NCBI GenBank assembly: GCA_951406725.2
Contig: OX597833.1
Span: 8,618,001 to 8,682,000 of the forward strand
DNA length: 64,000 bases
Origin: Octopus vulgaris
Lineage: Eukaryota
Direction: 5' to 3'
Under the pieces are notes generated by a model. It searched no databases, was not told the DNA's origin, and worked only from the letters and a program-made list of their open reading frames with translations. Of the stretch, positions 3,078 through 61,870 are shown piece by piece; the stretch's first letter is position 1, and every line of letters begins with the position of its first letter. The translations under genes were made by a program, and so were the position numbers.

Positions 3078-3165
3078 ATGGGATCTATTTTCCACGGATT
3101 TTTACGTTTGGTGGAGTTTACCTTCTTGGTCTACATGTTGATGTGGTCCTTCGCCCCTGTACAAG
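3078..3165 (+). CDS. Coding exon 1 of 7 of an uncharacterised type I membrane receptor (signal peptide)
   Basis: ATG at 3078 in a good context (atcATGG). Encodes MGSIFHGFLRLVEFTFLVYMLMWSFAPVQ+G, a hydrophobic core ending in V-Q-G (signal-peptidase -3/-1 pattern). Strong donor CAAG|gtaaga at 3165/3166, phase 1. Lies just downstream of a CpG-rich region. Confidence 0.8.
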
Positions 3166-5680: not shown

Positions 5681-6437
5681 CAGGGTGCGATGGGTAATTT
5701 GTCACCATTTTATATTTTTAATTTCGTGCATGCACATTATTTTTGATTTTGTCGACTACACAGTTGAGTAGGGTCAGTTGGGCACTGTCTTTGAGTAAAA
5801 CAGCACCATGACGCAATTCACTCTGCTAGAGATTTATAGTGTTTGGGTGTCCATCTGAGGACATGTACTGAGAGTGATAAAAATCAAACATCCAGTCAAC
5901 ATAATGGTGTTTGGAGCGATCACTAATGATAGCAACATTGTGCCTCCATTCATCTTCCCACATGGCCTCAGGCTCAACATGGAGGCCTACATCAACTGCC
6001 CGGAGGATGTAGTGTTACTCTGGATTAAGAGGGTGGCAGCTGGAAAACCCTGTGTCTGATAACAGGACTCTGACCATGCTACACATGTAGGAGAACACAG
6101 TCATGGCTGTCAGAGAATTCCTGCAATCACATCACCACTAATATCTGGCCACTTAACTCCCCAGACTGCAACTCCCTTGATTATTATTTGTGGGGCGCAG
6201 TTGAGCAAGAGACCAACAAAACCAAAGATGAACTGAAGGCAAGGATTATGGCAGCATTGACCAACTTACACAAGGAGATCGTCCAGAAGAGTTACAGGAG
6301 ATTTTGATGTCGTTTGGAGGCCGTGCTTGAAGCCAATGGCGATTTTATTGAATGAATTTAATCTTTAGTCAAAATGAGATGTCAGTGTTATTTTCATATT
6401 TGTGTAATTTAGATGACAGTTTATTCCCCACACCCTC
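5681..6437 (+). mobile_element. Internally deleted maT (DD37D) Tc1/mariner transposon
   Basis: CAGGGTG...CACCCT(c) termini. Decayed transposase MVFGAIT...PPFIFPHGLRLN, homologous to 28115-29382. Confidence 0.85.
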
Positions 6438-11640: not shown

Positions 11641-12410
11641 TGAGGTGTAGTCAAAATGTATCCAACCTTTGGCCAAAAAACAAGTAATATTAAAATACTA
11701 AACCATTTTGACTTAGTTTCCTTCAAAGTATTCGCCTTGGGCATCTACACTCTTCTGCCAGTGTTCCTTCCGCTGCTGGAAGCATGTCTGGAAATCCCTT
11801 TTTGGGATGCTGTAGAGTCGTGCCATTGAATTTTGCTTAATGTCCTCTCTTGACTCAACTCTTCTCCTTTTGAGTCTTTTTCTGAGCTTTGAGGATGGCC
11901 AAAAGTTACACGGAGCCAAGTCTGGAGAGTAGGAAGCCTGATGAACAAGTGTGTTTTGCCTGATAAGGAAGGCTTGGATGGCATGGACGGAATAAGTGGG
12001 TGCATTGTCATGGAGTCTCCAGTTCTTTGCTGCCCACAGACAATTCCTTGAACTTTTGCAATCATTTCATCCTTTTCTGCTGGTCAATTGTCCGGCCACA
12101 ACATGGCTCTCTGTCCACTGAGGTGCAGCCATCTTTGAGCCGGTTGTACCACTCTTTTATTTGTGTTTTTCCCACAGCATCATCTCCAGAGGCCTTCTGC
12201 ATCTTCTCGATAGTCGAGGTTTGTGCATCACCAAGTTTTGGAGAAGAATTTGATACATCGGACTCAGTCATCTTGACTCCAAAAGAAAAATTGTACAGCA
12301 CACTCTTCATGTCTGCACTGACTGTGGGCAAAGGGTGCAACCTACACACAATAATTTTTGCACATGCACAGGAAGGATGCAGCCACCTAATACTCGTGCG
12401 GATTTTGTGC
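11641..12410 (-). mobile_element. Decayed, internally deleted mariner transposon
   Basis: HTH remnant KLGDAQTSTIEKMQKASGDDAVGKTQIKEWYNRLKDG, motifs HDNAP and YSPDLAPC, and C-terminus AQGEYFEGN. Confidence 0.85.
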
Positions 12411-19805: not shown

Positions 19806-20310
19806 TACACAAAGTGCATTCCAGAAGCTTTGGAACTTTTTCAAGAGAGACATTTCCTAATTTCCAAGAAGTACAACCTCTAATCCCCTCCAGAGTAGTT
19901 TCATCTGACCTCAATACACTTGGTGTGCTGCTCCAGCCACTTCATGGAGGCCCCATAGAAGTCTTCTAAAGTGAAAGTGTCCAAGACCCCTGTCACAGCC
20001 TTCTTTATCTTCAAAACGACTGCTCCTCCTTCAGATTGGGGACACAACCAAGAGCAAGGTTTAGACTGTAGGGAGAGCAAGGGAGAATGTTGATACTCTT
20101 TTCTGCCAAATAGTTGGTTACCTGGATGGAATTGTGGACAGGTGCATTGTCCCGGTGCAGGTGCTCTGGTCTTTTGTGATGAATTCTCTTCCTAAACTCC
20201 CTCAAAACTTTCACAAAGTACTCTTTGTTGACCATCTGACCAAAGGGAACCCAGTAGATGCAGATGATCCCCTTGCTGTCAAAAAAAGGGGATCATCATG
20301 ATTTGCCTGG
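19806..20310 (-). mobile_element. Mariner transposon 3' fragment
   Basis: VNKEYFVKVLREFRKRIHHKRPE.LHRDNAPVHNS...PCSPYSLNLA. Confidence 0.8.
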
Positions 20311-28114: not shown

Positions 28115-29382
28115 TGTCGCCATTTTATATTTTTACTTTCACGGATTGTTTGTTTTTGATTTTGTTAACTGCACAGTATAGTAGGGTCAGTTGGGCACCA
28201 TCTGTGAGAAAAACAGCACCATGACGCAATTCACTCTGCCAGGAATTTGGAAATGACCATGCTATACTGTTTGACATTCATGCTGGAAGCTTCAATACAA
28301 ACATTTCAGAGTGTTTGGGTGTCAATCTGGGGACAGTGCAAAGGATTCAGAAAGAGTTGGTCATTATGAAGGTATGGCAGCTCAGAAAACTCACTCTGGT
28401 TGTTCTGATAAGAAAAGGACTCCTGAATTTGTTGGTGAGATCCAGGCCATGATTGACAATAGTCCCTCCAAGTCAAACAGGTCCATTGTCAGGGACATGG
28501 GGGTGTCTGAGTTTCTTATCAGGTTGGTAGTGCATGAAGACATTCAGTATTCCTTATGAAAGATGAGAAAAGGTCAATTTTTATCCCTAGGCATCAAGGA
28601 CAAGAGGAAAGACCATACTACGAGGCTTTTGAACAAACTCAAGCAACCCCTCCAACCAAACATGCTTTGGCTTTTCTCAGATGAGAAGAATCTCTGCCAG
28701 GATCAGATGGTGAACACAGAGAACAACCGTTGGCTTGCTGTGTCCCCCAAAACATGTGCCGAGAGTGATAAACATCAAACATCCAGTCAACAGCATGGTG
28801 TTTGGAATGATTACAAGTGATGGCAATGTTATGCCTCCATTCATATTTCCACACGACCTCAGACACAACACGGAGGCCTACATCAAGTGCCTGGAGGAGG
28901 TAGTGCTGCCCTGGATCAAGAGGGTGGCTGCTGGAAGACCCTACGTCTGGCAACAGGATTCTGCAACATGCCAAACAAGCAGGAGAGCCCAGTCATGGCT
29001 GTCAGACAATTGCTGTGACCACATCATCCCTAACATCTGGCCACATAACTCCCCAGACTGCAACCCCCTTGATTATTATGTGTGGGACGCAGTTGAGCAA
29101 GAGACCAGCAAAACTCCTTGTAACACCAAAGATGAAGTGAATACAAGGATTGTGGCAGCATTCACCAATTTAATTAAGGAGACCGTCCAGAAGACTTGCA
29201 GAAGACTCCGAAGTCTTCTGGAGGTCGTGGTTGAAGCCAATGTCGATTTTATTGAATAAATTTACTCTTTAGTATTTCAAGGTATTTTTTTGTAATTTTG
29301 GTAAATATATCTGTTAAAATGAGATGTCAGTGCTATTTTCATTTCTGCATAATTTAGATAGCAATTTATTCACCACACCCTG
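28115..29382 (+). mobile_element. maT (DD37D) Tc1/mariner transposon, near-complete but frameshifted
   Basis: FSDEK (D1), QQDSA (D2) and SPDCNPLD (D3), with exactly 37 residues between D2 and D3. The 3' TIR ...cacaccctg is followed by TA. ORF pieces at 28311-28559, 28563-28820 and 28735-29259. Confidence 0.9.
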
Positions 29383-41165: not shown

Positions 41166-41339
41166 ATATATAAATGAGCGCAAATAGTAACTAAATAAAG
41201 CCCAATCCACAGAGTCTGCACTTCCTCAACAGGAAGTAGAAGGGACATAACCTAAATACTTAAACATTCATTAACTTCCTGTTTTATTTCTTATCAACAT
41301 TTTCAATGACTTTCACCTGAATCCTCTTTATTTGAAAAA

Positions 41340-41757
41340 TAAATATGTTGTTGGTGCTGTTGTGCAAATACATAGAATCTTTCACCTCGCTTCTTAGTGG
41401 AATGATAACTTCTTCGCTCCTTGAATCTCGTGAACCATCCTTGACTTGCCTTCAACTCTACATCTTTTTCATTTGGATGTTTTTTCTTCAAGTTCTCAAA
41501 CAAAGACAATGCTTTCTCTTGAATGATTTCTTGACTAATAGTAGCAAGCTGACGATTCAACCTAACAATCCAAAGAGAAAGAAAACTTTCCATTCCTTCA
41601 AAGATTTTGCCTCTTGTTGATGACAGTGATCTTCATCCTTGGGGCTTCAGATTTGATTTGTGCTAAAATCTTGTCCTTATTATGTACAATCATCGATACA
41701 GTTGTCCGACTCACCCCAAAAGATTGTGCAATTGCTACCACCTTTTCACCTTTTCAT
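41340..41757 (-). mobile_element. pogo/Tigger transposase N-terminal fragment (HTH-psq plus CENP-B-type HTH)
   Basis: IAQSFGVSRTTVSMIVHNKDKI ... ESFLSLWI...ISQEIIQEKALSLFENLK...KASQGWFTRFKER. Confidence 0.8.
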
Positions 41758-48030: not shown

Positions 48031-48128
48031 ATGACCCTGGCATTTACAGAATGACCCTGGCATTTACAGAATGACCCTGGCATTTACAGAATGACCCTGG
48101 CATAAAATGACCCTGGCATTTACAGAAT
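48031..48128. repeat. 20-bp tandem repeat (atgaccctggcatttacaga), ~5 copies
   Basis: Directly visible. Confidence 0.9.
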
Positions 48129-48200
48129 GCGAATAAATGACAGAGGAAGAGATTAAAGTTATCTCCTTTACTAGAGAGTTCATAACTTCCTTTAAAACAA

Positions 48201-49194: not shown

Positions 49195-49410
49195 GAACTG
49201 AATTTTGCTCCACCCACATCAGGGCCCAGACATTTGCCTGCAATAATGGGAGTGTGATGTTCATTGAAAAGTTAAATGCCTTGATGGACAGTGATTGGAA
49301 ATGTCTTCAAGATCTCAAGTTTTATTGCAACAGATACCGAAAGTGCAACATGCCACATTCTTGTCAGAATGCCTCAATAGATGCCAGAATACTTTATGGC
49401 TGCATCCCAG
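49195..49410 (+). CDS. Coding exon 2: Cys-rich, degenerate SUEL/galactose-lectin-like domain
   Basis: Acceptor tttttctctcctcctcag| and donor CAG|gtatgt. 216 nt, phase 1-1, open frame GTEFCSTHIRAQTFACNNGSVMFIEKLNALMDSDWKCLQDLKFYCNRYRKCNMPHSCQNASIDARILYGCIP. Seven Cys with CxxxxxC and a terminal YxC spacing like SUEL. Sequons NGS and NAS. Confidence 0.85.
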
Positions 49411-52151: not shown

Positions 52152-52463
52152 ATGTTAAGAATGAAAAAGAACATGAGTGTTCAGACAAGACAAATTCCAG
52201 AGATTTAGAAGACCAAATCTTCCTTGTTACACCACATAATATGGAAACTATTACAAGATGTAATTGGAGGCTGAAGACTCTCACCAATGGAATGTTGATA
52301 CTTTACGTCCTCAATGCCTCTGACGCCAGCCTCTTGGCAATGCATCATCGTAATCATCATGAACAGAAACCGTTATATCGAGCTTTAGTTATCAATGTCA
52401 CAGCAAATGAAGCAATAGACCTAACTATTGATCCTAAGTCACCGACTTGGTTGGTAGCAAAAT
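52152..52463 (+). CDS. Coding exon 3: CUB-like domain
   Basis: Long polypyrimidine tract ending ttggtag| and donor AAAT|gtaagt. 312 nt, phase 1-1. DVKNEKEHECSD...IFLVTPHNMETITRCNWRLKT...LVAK shows the CUB N-terminal C...(S/T)P...CxW pattern followed by beta-strand-like segments. Sequons NAS and NVT. Confidence 0.85.
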
Positions 52464-54262: not shown

Positions 54263-54376
54263 TGATTCATCAGACTGTGAAGGATGTCAGCCTCCAAGAT
54301 TTTATTTCCTGTCCAGTTTCTGACAAACCTAAAAAAGGCAGAAGCCTTGCAGAAATTTGCCTCGCAACTTTAGCAG
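54263..54376 (+). CDS. Coding exon 4: membrane-proximal stalk
   Basis: Acceptor ttcatttttcttctgatttcag| and donor GCAG|gtatga. 114 nt, phase 1-1. Encodes LIHQTVKDVSLQDFISCPVSDKPKKGRSLAEICLATLA (2 Cys). Confidence 0.75.
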
Positions 54377-57084: not shown

Positions 57085-57680
57085 TTAGCTTATACAGGAA
57101 CATAGTAAAAATGTGGATTGTAGCCGTGATCTGGGGCAAAACCGTAACAAGTATTTTGTCAGATGTGGACGTGATCCAAAAATTTCAGTCCTTGAATTCA
57201 GACATGTAGTGGGGTCCAAGGAACATTTCCAGATGAGCCATCTTTCCATATCACAAAGACCACACTTGCCACTACTTTTGCTATAAGGTTTACACTTGGC
57301 CAAGGTCTTCCAGTAAATCTTATAGATGACACTTTGTTCTTTTAAGAACCATATTTTACTGGATAATTTGGTATTTCTTCATTCATTCCAGTGTCTGAAG
57401 CTTAAGGTGTGATTGTTGAACCTTGCTTTGAAATTTCCCTCTGTGAGACCCACATATCTCTTGGATGAAACTGTGTTATTAGTATTTGTAGAATTTATGG
57501 TGGCTTCATAAATAATGGCCTCGGTCATACAGGCTCCATTTAGCGGGCACAAGTCTTTATCCCTGCAGGAACAGACGGCTTCGTGTTGTTGTGTTGCATT
57601 GTGTGTAATTATGTTTTTAAAGTTTAGGGTTGAACTAAAACTAATTTTTAGGTTTTGCCTATTGAAGAGATTCCTATACA
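57085..57680 (-). mobile_element. Penelope-like retroelement 3' fragment encoding a GIY-YIG endonuclease
   Basis: FNRQNLKISFS...CSCRDKDLCPLNGACMTEAIIYEAT...RYVGLTEGNFKARFNNHTLSF...*RNTKLSSKIWFLK...PYSKSSGKCGLCDMER...LNSRTEI. One frame with a single TGA at 57379-57381. The 5' end abuts (TA)n. Confidence 0.85.
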
Positions 57681-58434
57681 TCATATATATATATATATAT
57701 ATATATACTAAAGAGTGCTGAGAAGTAAGCTAACAGTCTCAACCAAAGACTGGCCTTGAGTTGATACTTTTGACTACCATGAATCAATGGTGAGGGTTCT
57801 CGGTACCCATCTATATCTGCACTGGACCAGTGTCCCACCCAGGTGGGGAGTATAGATGCCATGAACCCAGGAAGCCATACCTTCTCGGTATGACTTGGGA
57901 AAGTAACTTTACTTTTTTTACTTTACCCTTCTATATATGGGTGTACAAATGCATAGATATTTATTTATAAGTATATTTAATGTGTGTGTGAGTTTGTGTA
58001 ACATCTGTTATTTAAATAATATTATGAAACAGCTGTAAACGAATAAACATTTATTCTCCTCATTTCATTTCTCTTATGCAAACAAATAATGTGTGTGTGT
58101 GTAAACCATCTAAGAATCCATGTCAGGCAGCAGCTCTATATCATAAATGTTACCAATATCACTTTATGTACATTTGTTGTTTAAACAGCAGAGGCTGCAG
58201 TTTTTTGCCCAGAGACAATTCCTTTAGAGACGTTCAGTGTTAGAAAACACGTCTTTAAAGGAAATTTTCTTGGATGAAAATCTGCAGTTTTACATTAATC
58301 TATTCTCTCTTATTTCAACCCCTTAATCCCCTTATCCGATCCATGCCAGTATGGACATACATGCCTCTACACACACACATGGATGCAGCATGTATATTTT
58401 GAGTGACCTTTGCCGTCAATTTTTCTATTTTCAG

Positions 58435-58510
58435 GCTATAAAATCGCTGTAATTGTGTTATGTTGTGCTGTCCTCATCTTGGTGGCCATCTTGTCAATAA
58501 TAATCCATTG
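58435..58510 (+). CDS. Coding exon 5: transmembrane helix
   Basis: Acceptor tttttctattttcag| and donor TTG|gtgagt. 76 nt, phase 1 to 2. Encodes GYKIAVIVLCCAVLILVAILSIIIH, with about 21 consecutive apolar residues. Confidence 0.85.
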
Positions 58511-58605
58511 GTGAGTCCCATTTTTTTTGTATCCCATGGCTACCACCCTGAAATCTATCCTAGCAAAGGTCATCTTTGATACAGACAATTGTGAAACCTC
58601 ATTAA

Positions 58606-58825
58606 CCCTTTCGTTACTAACCCGGCTGAAACCGGCTCTTGTTTTCATAAGCTTTGTCTTGTTTTCATAAGCTTTGAATTAAAATCTTCCACCAAACCTT
58701 AGTCACAATTAATGTTCCTAACATTAGATTAATGATAACTAAGTTATTTTACTAAATTCTTTGTTATATTTAAAATAATTGAGAGAAGAACAGAGAATCT
58801 CAAAATAAATACAGTAATGAAAGGG
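58606..58825. mobile_element. piggyBac-type MITE with TTAA target-site duplication
   Basis: TTAA|CCCTTTCGTTACT ... AGTAATGAAAGGG|TTAA. Confidence 0.85.
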
Positions 58826-60217
58826 TTAAACCAGTTTTTCTACCCACCCTTGGAGATATGGGTGACAAGTGTTGGGGAGTCTTAGAATATGATGGGAGAG
58901 CAAATACCTTGATCATACTTTCATCATAGAAATAGGAGGAGGATCATATTTATGACTTTACAACTATGAAGTGTCATATTTATGTCTTAGCAATGACAAA
59001 GGTCCTACTTATGACTATGAGGTGTCAAACCATAGAACTATGGGGTGGGTGTCTTTTATGAGTTAAGAAGTATTCAGAAGGTGGGAATCATGGTAGAACT
59101 GACAAGGGATTTATTCTATGGCATGAAACTCTAGAAAAAGTCCAGGTTAAGGTCTCTGACCTCTGCTGGTCAACTTTTGTGGATTTCAGACTGCTGAAGC
59201 AGGAAGTCAGTTATTCTTTAATTATTGAATTAAATGTAATTATCAATTAATTGCTTCTCTTCTGTAGTAAGTCATCAACTGTGTTTAGATCTGCAGAGAG
59301 AGGGGCTTCACCGAAATGGCCCCAAGGTCCACTCTGTACCAATAATGTAACTCTTCCAACCCTGTCAGGAGTTGAGGGTCCCTGGCCTGGCAACATTAGT
59401 TCTATCTGCTCAGTCCACATTACATAAGCAATCCAGTGCCACACACTCCTCATCGTTCACCCAATTCCTTCAGTGTACGACTGACACGGGTGCTGGAGGA
59501 AGGAGCACAACAAACTCACTGCTCAATAAATTTGTTGCCAAACACACTCGTTACTCAACATATTCACTGCTCAAGGCAACTACCACTCAAACATGGCTCA
59601 ATACATTCACCCATAGCTCACCACAGTCAATGGACTTGCTGCACAATGCATTTGTTACTCTTACACCATAAGTGGTCAACACCTACTCAATATACCTCTT
59701 ACTCAACACTTGAGCTCTAATGCATTTGCTGCTCAAAACAGCCACCGCTTGCTCAGTGCACTCACTGCTCAACATTCTCAAGTGTTCAGTACTTACTAAT
59801 CATGTTCCCACTTCGTCTACTATTCAGCACATTCAATAATGTATTCCTAGATATACTAGAACTACATTATGCAGTGTGTCCTTTCCTTTTCTAAAACCTT
59901 CCCATGTAATCTGAGGGAAATTTGGTTGCAATTTCTTGCAGGTCTAGGCGCTGCTTAGAAGCTCCGTCTTTGGTTGGCAGTGGCTGGTTGTATGGAATAA
60001 TGTTACACAGCACACTTAGTGGTGATTGTTGTAGAGGCTGTTGTAAGTTGGTGGTAGTTGTGACATCAGTGGTGGTGATTGCAGAGTTGGTGTAAAGAGG
60101 ACGACGCTGGGACAGCTGGGATGTTGCTACCCCTAATGCCACCCCCCACCCTGCAGCACTAAAATATCCTGCTTCCCCCACACCATCATCTGGTTTCTTC
60201 TTCTTCTCTTCCTCTAG

Positions 60218-60331
60218 TTACTGTAAGAAAATCAAGTCTACACAAAGATCTCGAGACACGTCAGGGAATCGGCCGACATCAACTGTGATTCCATATCAGA
60301 CGACCCTGATCAATGGCTCCAAGAAGAACAA
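60218..60331 (+). CDS. Coding exon 6: juxtamembrane cytoplasmic segment
   Basis: Acceptor ttcttcttcttctcttcctctag| and donor CAA|gtaagt. 114 nt, phase 2-2. Encodes CYCKKIKSTQRSRDTSGNRPTSTVIPYQTTLINGSKKN, with a Cys plus basic stop-transfer cluster right after the TM. Confidence 0.8.
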
Positions 60332-60905
60332 GTAAGTGGAGGTTGACATTGTTGCAAGTAGTTCCTGGCAGTTGGGGGCAGTCCTTCTTGAAACTACCTT
60401 ATTGTGTAGATTGGTACTTAATGGGGACATTAACAAACAGATATTTGTGTGTGTGTGTGTGTGTATTTACATGCAGAGAGGGACCGGCAAAGCTGTGGGT
60501 TCAAGAAGTTCACTTGATAGCCATGTGGCTTTTGATGGAGTTCTAGTGCTTGGCCCTTCGGGGCAAGTCTTCTACTACATGTATCTCCTGAATGAATTCA
60601 GCAGGTTTGTCAGGTGTGTGTGTGTTTGGAGTCCCTTGTTATGATTTCATTCAATGATTATCAATGATTGTCAACATCACTTAAGCAATGTTCTTCATTT
60701 TCAATCTTCCATGGAAACCTGTTTGGCCATGAAGGAAATATCACGTTGCTTGGAAACAAGGGAAGGTTAGGGGACAAGAACAGCATCAGTGAATTCTGTT
60801 TGACCCATGGGAAAGTGGACATCAAAATGATGGTGAATTATCTATTTCATTAGCTAATTATTTATTTCTTTGTCTAATTATATATATTTTTGCTTTGCTT
60901 TCTAG

Positions 60906-61101
60906 GTTAAATCAATTAAACCACAACCTGTCATCACCCAATCATTTGAGAAAAGACAAACACCTGTACGACCACTTAAGCCGTTATGACTCATCCTATG
61001 CTGTGCGATTTGACCCCAACACGTCCAAGAATAACTGGAAAAGATCTTATGATGATTCCGACTCAGATTCTACCTATGCTACTGTTGGCGAGAACTCGTA
61101 G
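60906..61101 (+). CDS. Coding exon 7 (terminal): Tyr-motif cytoplasmic tail
   Basis: Acceptor ttttgctttgctttctag|, phase 2. Encodes KLNQLNHNLSSPNHLRKDKHLYDHLSRYDSSYAVRFDPNTSKNNWKRSYDDSDSDSTYATVGENS*, with stop TAG at 61099-61101. Confidence 0.85.
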
Positions 61102-61324
61102 AAACTGTCAAAGACAAATTCTTTAAGACTTGCTTTGCTGCATTATGTTCGTTAATCAGGATTCACGTGTCTTGTCAGTGGAGTTTTATATTTATTCGGT
61201 CTCTGCTCCTCACCAAACTCTGCCATCATTCTGTGATTAATAATAATGTTCCAGAATTCCATTTAAATATCTCTCTGACACACCTTTCAAATGGCCATTA
61301 TTATTATTGTTGTTGTTGTTGTTA

Positions 61325-61870
61325 AGCAAACTGGCAGAATCGTTAGCATGCTGGGTGAAATGCATAGCAGTATTTTGTCTGCCACTACGATCTGAGTTCA
61401 ATTTCCACCAAGGTCGACTTTGCCTTTCATCCCCACGGGGTCGATGAAATAAGTCCCAGTTACGCACTGGGGTCGATGTAATTGACTTATCCCTTCTCCT
61501 GATATTTTTGGCCTCGTGCCAAAATTTGAAATCATTATTATTATTACTATTATTATTATTATTATTACTATTATTATTATTACTATTATTATTACTATTA
61601 CTATTATTATTATTATTATTATTACTATTATTATTATTATTATTAAGGTGGTGAGCTGACAGAATCGTTAGCACACTGGACAAAATGCTTTGCAGTATTT
61701 CACCTGTCGCTACGTTCTGAGTTCAAATCCCGATGAGGTTGACTTTGCCTTTCATCCTTTTCGAGGTCGAAGAAATAAGTACCAGTTACACACTGGGGTC
61801 GACGTAATTGACTGGCCCCCTTGCCCCCCTTTCCCCCAAACTTCAGGTCTTGTGCCTAGAGTAGAAAAGA
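61325..61870 (+). mobile_element. Two tandem SINE family B copies separated by (ATT)n, in the likely 3' UTR/downstream region
   Basis: Copies at 61325-61533 and 61647-61870. Confidence 0.85.

Follow-up and report, generated by a model that had tools for sequence, protein, structure and literature searches.

The last coding exon of an uncharacterised Octopus vulgaris gene encodes a cluster of tyrosines. Do these form the inhibitory tail of a cell-surface receptor, and which effector would they bind? An earlier note on this DNA, a contiguous stretch of 64,000 nucleotides (the window, to which all positions refer), proposed an ITIM-type tail behind a lectin-like ectodomain.

Gene structure and transcription

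The segment 60906–61101 (+ strand) is the terminal coding exon (exon 7, 64 codons) of a seven-exon gene. The gene was found by searching with exon 52154–52462, and the homologous proteins were then mapped back onto the window by tblastn. The mapped homologues give seven coding exons and one open frame of 371 codons; the introns are all of the GT-AG type. The coding sequence of 1,116 bases is spread over 58 kb, with 46 kb taken up by intron 1 (3166–49194). The gene is real and spliced, and its predicted product is a receptor at the cell surface; its features are as follows.

3078–3165 (+): exon 1; start codon and putative signal peptide (residues 1–30); placed by tblastn with the O. sinensis and O. 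bimaculoides proteins, GT donor
49195–49410 (+): exon 2, phase-1 symmetric; 71-residue domain with seven invariant cysteines, predicted from the fold model and fold searches to be a shortened SUEL/rhamnose-binding-lectin fold
52152–52463 (+): exon 3; predicted CUB-like β-sandwich (residues 102–206; VIA, Foldseek) with invariant C111 and C138-x-W140
54263–54376 (+): exon 4; extracellular stalk; tblastn, AG/GT borders and a contig of run X1
58435–58510 (+): exon 5; one transmembrane helix, spanning roughly residues 246–268; hydropathy peak of 3.5, helix in the model, splicing in four of four runs
60218–60331 (+): exon 6; juxtamembrane C-x-C-K (C269, C271 and K272 invariant in the alignment) and VxPYxTTL; splicing in four of four runs
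60285–60308 (+): VxPYxTTL motif around Y295 in exon 6 (VIPYQTTL in the window); invariant in six of six homologues
60906–61101 (+): coding part of exon 7; tail predicted to be disordered (model pLDDT), five tyrosines and stop; splicing in four of four runs
60961–60978 (+): HxYDHL motif around Y328; invariant in six of six homologues
61069–61089 (+): terminal (S/P)TYAxVG motif around Y364, behind an acidic run and four residues before the C-terminus; T-Y-A-x-V-G in six of six homologues
61102–61432 (+): 3′ untranslated region, reaching at least this far; spliced contigs of runs X1 and X2

The product of 371 residues consists of the signal peptide (residues 1–30, assigned by position alone and hence putative), a cysteine-rich domain of 71 residues, a second domain of 105 residues, a stalk, the membrane helix and a tail of 103 residues. 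The ectodomain comprises about 215 residues. Exon 7 is preceded by a pyrimidine-rich acceptor with AG at 60904–60905 and closes with the stop codon at 61099–61101.

Contigs of four public runs were compared over 58300–61450, the part of the gene that holds exons 5–7. In all four runs, contigs connect 58510 with 60218 and 60331 with 60906, skipping GT..AG introns, and most of the intron sequence in this interval is not covered. These joints show exon 7 to be transcribed and spliced; the runs have no RNA label on record. A loose contig end in front of exon 5 in run X1 reads the end of exon 4. Sequence words of the transcript are present in 19 runs of 8 studies, in which the tissues are coded. 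The exon model agrees with the earlier note on five tyrosines in the last exon and on STYATV near its end: the hexapeptide is encoded by 61069–61086, which leaves four residues before the stop codon.

The protein of the window differs from that of O. sinensis at two positions and, after removal of exon 2, is exactly the O. vulgaris model CAI9737282.1. Exon 2 (216 bases) may be a cassette exon that gives rise to a receptor without the SUEL-like domain, or may have been missed in modelling. The RefSeq isoforms of O. bimaculoides differ at the N-terminus only. There are no coding differences in exons 5–7 among the four runs.

The introns contain repeats. Pfam matched three of 13 candidate frames, all three being remnants of DNA transposons on the minus strand of intron 1: a Mos1-type HTH (12065–12409, E 0.0014), a mariner Transposase_1 (20014–20292, E 2.9e-5) and a Tc5 DNA-binding domain (41306–41632, E 2.2e-11). 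The frames 28560–29256 (+), 5859–6304 (+) and 57085–57729 (−) have no Pfam match at E 0.01 and are presumably remnants resembling Tc1-type transposase and retroelement endonuclease. A 21-base unit forms a short tandem array of about four copies at 48043–48135 (intron 1). In intron 5, a dispersed and highly transcribed repeat is located at 58601–58830, where contigs of all four runs have very high depth and loose ends.

A coleoid family with a predicted two-domain ectodomain

The search with exon 52154–52462 returned the uncharacterised proteins XP_014785088.1 (Octopus bimaculoides) and GAB1602041.1 (Argonauta hians), and their clusters contributed XP_029647326.1 (O. sinensis) and CAI9737282.1 (O. 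vulgaris). Full-length and profile searches added members with 36–40% identity, namely P0009/P0010, P0011/P0014, the fragment P0013 and the Sepia pharaonis model P0012. Run against 1.84 billion representatives, the family profile returned four matches at E up to 0.001, all of them family members, and a search with the tail alone scored seven candidates, three of which belong to the family. Within the reach of these HMMER searches, the family is confined to coleoid cephalopods. One member per species was found, and within the same reach of the sequence searches no paralogue was detected. The gene looks single-copy and near-invariant, as judged for polymorphism from exons 5–7 and the comparison with O. 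sinensis.

Conservation was counted over six full-length homologues, which correspond to roughly four independent lineages. The isoform models P0006, P0007 and P0008, whose tails are the same as those of P0005/P0003, were left out of these counts, as were P0011, which is part of P0014, P0013, which covers domain 2 alone, and P0012. The tail of P0012 (CAE1267594.1) is 99% identical to that of P0009 and keeps VTPYHTTL and HTYDHL. Exactly where the terminal tyrosine motif is expected, this model turns into a low-complexity F/S run; near-identical proteins keep the motif. Its loss in P0012 is probably an assembly or annotation fault.

Domain 1, encoded by exon 2, was folded alone with a pLDDT of 81. 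In VIA the top eight of 48,161 chains are all of the SUEL type, with middling Z-scores of 5.0–5.9 (the next chain has 3.9) and an r.m.s.d. of 2.8–3.0 over 66–68 of the 71 residues. These chains are latrophilin lectin domains, P113, RIPR, SUL-I, CSL3 and the C-terminal domain of a plant galactosidase. Foldseek also places latrophilin lectin domains first, with a best E of just 0.018, and the lead of the Atlas search is PF02140 (0.89). Three methods thus agree, despite the middling Z-scores, and the model predicts a shortened SUEL fold. Domain 1 is about 25 residues shorter than the aligned spans of 93–99 residues. According to PMC10817417, rhamnose-binding lectin domains are characterised by eight cysteines and the motifs YGR, DPC and KYL. 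Domain 1 has seven invariant cysteines instead of eight, and YGR, DPC and KYL are absent from all five aligned copies. The lectin-like ectodomain of the earlier note is borne out as a fold, but with these motifs missing sugar binding is doubtful; because they have been lost, the ectodomain would rather bind protein. No match to domain 1 was obtained in Pfam (five copies) or by sequence search of the PDB.

For domain 2 (exon 3), VIA gives Z-scores of 9.4 for the CUB domains of spermadhesin and meteorin and 9.2 for that of Kremen, although non-CUB sandwiches tie with them at 9.1–10.2, among them bacterial collagenase or collagen-binding domains at 9.4–10.2. The CUB domains of Kremen, neuropilin and Neto are among the closest folds (VIA, Foldseek). 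C111, C138 and W140 are invariant. In Pfam, two of six members match a CUB variant at only E 0.065. An Atlas search of both ectodomains returned, below 0.9, only CUB-type leads. The prediction for domain 2 is a CUB-like jelly roll. Pfam returned nothing above its cut-off for five proteins or pieces, the six full-length members and the five copies of domain 1, and nothing meaningful was found by PDB sequence searches. The Pfam matches to DUF3481, SIT and ECSCR span the membrane region only and were rejected.

In the stretch of residues 34–238, the seven cysteines of domain 1 leave one unpaired. The stalk (C222) and the membrane helix (C254) each hold a further invariant cysteine. This may allow a disulfide between domains or between chains.

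Conserved tyrosine motifs of the tail

Exon 7 encodes Y328 (60967), Y334 (60985), Y338 (60997), Y355 (61048) and Y364 (61075), and the complete tail contains seven tyrosines. Three of the seven, Y295, Y328 and Y364, are invariant in the six full-length homologues. Y270 is present in five of the six, Y334 and Y338 in three (octopods only) and Y355 in two. Conservation of YDHL and TYATV across orthologues had been proposed as a check on the earlier note; YDHL and TYAxV are retained in all six homologues, and the refuting condition named there, missing conservation of the tyrosine motifs, does not hold. The third invariant motif, VIPYQTTL in exon 6, lies outside the five tyrosines of that note. 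VxPYxTTL fits none of the ITIM, ITAM, ITSM and Csk patterns that were tested.

Blocks of seven residues with at least five invariant positions occur in the tail only three times, on VxPYxTTL, HxYDHL and TYAxVG (P = 0.005, column shuffle). No other stretch of the tail is conserved to this degree, so selection acts on the three tyrosine motifs. Against the decapodiform-type homologues the identity of the tail is 44–48% and that of the ectodomains 31–40%; against Argonauta the values are 53% for the tail and 58–60% for the ectodomains. Residues 273–371 have a pLDDT below 50, and the tail is predicted to be disordered.

The invariant part of the terminal motif in the six homologues is T-Y-A-x-V-G and excludes the residue at Y-2, which is Ser in five sequences and Pro in Argonauta. 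Four to five acidic residues precede Y364 in all six, in line with the acidic stretch upstream of the terminal tyrosine that had been noted before. The distance between YDHL and the terminal motif varies from 33 to 43 residues. By the PDZ class rules, a PDZ-binding C-terminus is unlikely for this family, the last residue being Ser or Thr in six of six homologues.

An ITIM is defined by the residues at Y-2 and Y+3. The loose ITIM, given in bioRxiv 2022.03.04.482883 as [I/L/V/S]xYxx[I/V/L] in a cytoplasmic tail, is present as STYATV in the window and in five of six homologues; it is absent in Argonauta. In shuffled sequences [SIVL]xYxx[IVL] arises in 21% of 20,000 shuffles of the Ser-rich tail of the window and in 14–22% across four tails (shuffle figures computed on database proteins). 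Taken alone, the loose match is thus no more than chance would give; what exceeds chance is its conservation. The canonical ITIM (I/L/VxYxxI/L/V in PMC12582321), searched in its strict form [IVL]xYxx[IVL], is found in none of the six homologues. The ITIM match of the earlier note consequently holds for the loose consensus in five of six homologues, with Ser, the weakest residue allowed, at Y-2 (Pro in Argonauta, the sixth), and does not extend to the strict one. The ITAM pattern Yxx[IL]x6-12Yxx[IL] and the hemITAM pattern [DE]3xYxxL are likewise found in none of the six, and the ITSM pattern is absent from the tails. The Csk-type site Y-[T/A/S]-x-[V/I/M], judged against Table I of PMC2194115, is present in six of six. 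Y[AST]x[VI] arises by chance in 11–15% of shuffled tails and a pair of Yxx-hydrophobic matches in 24–30%.

Candidate partners and rival explanations

Assigned from short motifs and mammalian SH2 preferences, the best explanation is a receptor that has no catalytic activity and docks partners through phosphotyrosine. Its terminal Y-A-x-V would bring in Csk, the kinase that dampens Src, either alone or together with SHP2. This reading is held tentatively, at somewhat below an even chance. The ectodomain would engage a protein ligand rather than a sugar. Palmitoylation of the juxtamembrane cysteines may place the receptor near Src-family kinases, and clustering by the ligand would allow these kinases to phosphorylate Y364 with its acidic flank and perhaps Y328 and Y295. 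Phosphorylated Y364 would then bind a Csk-type SH2 domain and exert negative feedback on Src signalling, while Y328 may be a second SH2 site or an internalisation signal.

The models for this reading are the adaptors PAG/Cbp, LIME and SIT. They share with the octopus protein a single membrane pass, a juxtamembrane cysteine pair with basic residues, a disordered tail with several tyrosines and Y-[A/S/T]-x-V (PMC2194115). Their ectodomain, in contrast, is minimal. Raft adaptors carry palmitoylated juxtamembrane cysteine pairs, spaced as CxxC in PAG/LIME/LAT. The very short ectodomain and the CxxC of this type are not found in the octopus protein, which has CxC and two folded domains within about 215 residues. 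By sequence, the Y-A-x-V core, the acidic flank and the CxC-basic motif suit PAG, LIME and SIT at least as well as an ITIM. CDCP1, which combines a CUB ectodomain with two juxtamembrane cysteines plus Lys and a Src-phosphorylated tail (PMC3534080), is built alike and also favours this reading. In Table I of PMC2194115, Csk sites are mostly Y-[A/S/T]-x-V with a varied residue, in some cases Pro, at Y-2. The same source reports that LIME contains two putative ITIMs, yet bound Csk and Lck and no SHP-1, SHP-2 or SHIP. Against Csk, the residue at +2 of the terminal site (T/I) falls outside the peptide-library consensus K/R/Q/N given in that paper. Furthermore, Y-A-x-V also suits SHP2 at +1 and +3, so the motif cannot separate Csk from SHP2; EPIYA-type motifs divide likewise between the two (PMC13457649). 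Homology to SIT was considered and rejected: a sub-threshold Pfam match (E 0.036) covers the membrane region of one of six members, and the likeness is functional at most.

The proposal of the earlier note, an inhibitory immune receptor of haemocytes in which recognition of a self glycan by the lectin-like domain leads YDHL and STYATV to engage SHP2/Corkscrew through its tandem SH2 domains (or SHIP), appears rather unlikely. The loose ITIM is common to octopods and cuttlefish-type sequences, both motifs are conserved, and the oyster receptor CgNCAM1, which carries two ITIMs, dampens inflammatory signalling and has SHIP2 as an interaction partner (PMC11841013). Human SHP2 N-SH2 prefers I/L/V at −2 and hydrophobic residues at +3; at +1 it favours Ala, Thr or hydrophobic residues (PMC10369915). 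Measured by this human preference, the terminal site has an acceptable Ala at +1 and Val at +3 and fits at these two positions only; YDHL fits at +3 only, with His at −2 and Asp at +1. The pairing of YDHL and YxxV for SHP phosphatases is thus supported in that both motifs are conserved, but not by the poor fit of YDHL or the variable spacing. Against this proposal also stand the missing strict ITIM, the Pro of Argonauta, the frequency of the loose match in shuffled tails and the absence of the sugar-binding motifs from domain 1. One member found per species, two differences to O. sinensis and exons 5–7 without coding differences in four runs contrast with Botryllus and Hydractinia, in which the receptors are polymorphic and multigene.

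CgNCAM1, Alr of Hydractinia, FcoR of Botryllus and the Siglecs and LILRBs share a single pass, a loose ITIM close to the C-terminus and, in addition, another YxxL. They belong to the Ig superfamily, however, and several are polymorphic and multigene (PMC11999971 for LILRB). The octopus protein lacks both an Ig domain and a strict ITIM, and the search found a single, near-invariant gene in each species. Invertebrate receptors with ITIMs are in print (PMC11841013, bioRxiv 2022.03.04.482883 and PMC12582321), which counts against the suggestion of an undescribed inhibitory immune receptor. The resemblance to Siglecs was also put forward; with domains that model as SUEL-type and CUB-type and no Ig domain, it is reduced to an analogy. 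Siglecs bind sialic acid with a V-set Ig ectodomain.

The same tyrosines could instead serve a positive scaffold in adhesion, growth or neural wiring, with SHP2 or a Src-family kinase as the recruited partner, like CDCP1 or PZR, with the SUEL-like domain binding protein in the manner of the latrophilin lectin domain. The nearest folds, the latrophilin lectin domains, include several solved bound to teneurin, in FLRT/Unc5 complexes and with TOL-1; the CUB domains of Kremen, neuropilin and Neto are also near, and the transcript occurs across the 19 coded runs. CDCP1 has a CUB-type ectodomain, as predicted here, two juxtamembrane cysteines followed by Lys and tail tyrosines phosphorylated by Src, and its tail binds the Src SH2 domain and promotes signalling (PMC3534080). 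Fold likeness to adhesion and guidance receptors shows no function, however, and a sequence relation to latrophilin, CUB proteins or CDCP1 was not found in the full-length, profile and PDB searches; the octopus protein has one CUB-like and one SUEL-like domain and less than half the length of CDCP1. This scaffold is considered quite unlikely. Alternatively, the tyrosines may stay unphosphorylated and act as sorting signals of a cargo or clearance receptor that does not signal. Yxx-hydrophobic sorting signals bind the mu subunits of AP complexes. YDHL and YAxV both fit this pattern, the tail is predicted to be disordered and endocytic receptors such as cubilin carry CUB domains. On the other hand, the unchanging Ala (+1), Thr (−1) and Gly (+4), together with the acidic run in all six homologues, would exceed the needs of a sorting signal, and two such matches are frequent in shuffled tails; this explanation is regarded as improbable.

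The Csk-docking receptor is preferred to these alternatives. Since recruitment of Csk is inhibitory too, the earlier note may have been right on the sign of the signal and wrong on the effector.

Extracellularly, the SUEL fold is shared with SUEL/RBL-domain receptors, through the latrophilin lectin domain. EVA-1 is another receptor of this kind. The octopus domain differs from them in its shorter length, seven cysteines and lack of YGR/DPC/KYL, and leads into a CUB-like domain and a single membrane helix. The annotation of the gene is automatic only. In full-text searches of mostly non-subscription journals, no paper on LOC115221306 or five other accessions was found; supplementary expression tables may list the gene. 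Full-text searches of the same scope gave no paper for 'immunoreceptor tyrosine-based' with octopus and cephalopod or for the combination of SUEL and CUB domains, transmembrane and mollusc, and one unrelated paper for ITIM, mollusc, receptor and SHP2. Neither the family nor its combination of domains appears to have been described; the class, non-catalytic receptors with phosphotyrosine docking motifs, is known.

A wider interpretation, unlikely as it stands, is that an inhibitory receptor peculiar to coleoids was assembled from a SUEL fold that no longer binds sugar, a domain of CUB type and a tail resembling that of PAG/LIME. Such a ligand-gated recruiter of Csk (and SHP2) would silence Src in haemocytes or neurons and would have an origin separate from that of the Ig and C-type-lectin inhibitory receptors of other animals. 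If ligand binding does recruit Csk, invertebrates would have in this protein a counterpart of PAG/LIME in the form of a receptor. As an ITIM receptor, it would instead add a new type of ectodomain to a class known in molluscs, cnidarians and tunicates. Neither outcome would overturn current views. Little has been published on inhibitory signalling in cephalopod cells, and the three conserved tyrosine motifs, carried behind a fast-diverging and apparently coleoid-restricted ectodomain, provide a testable entry to it.
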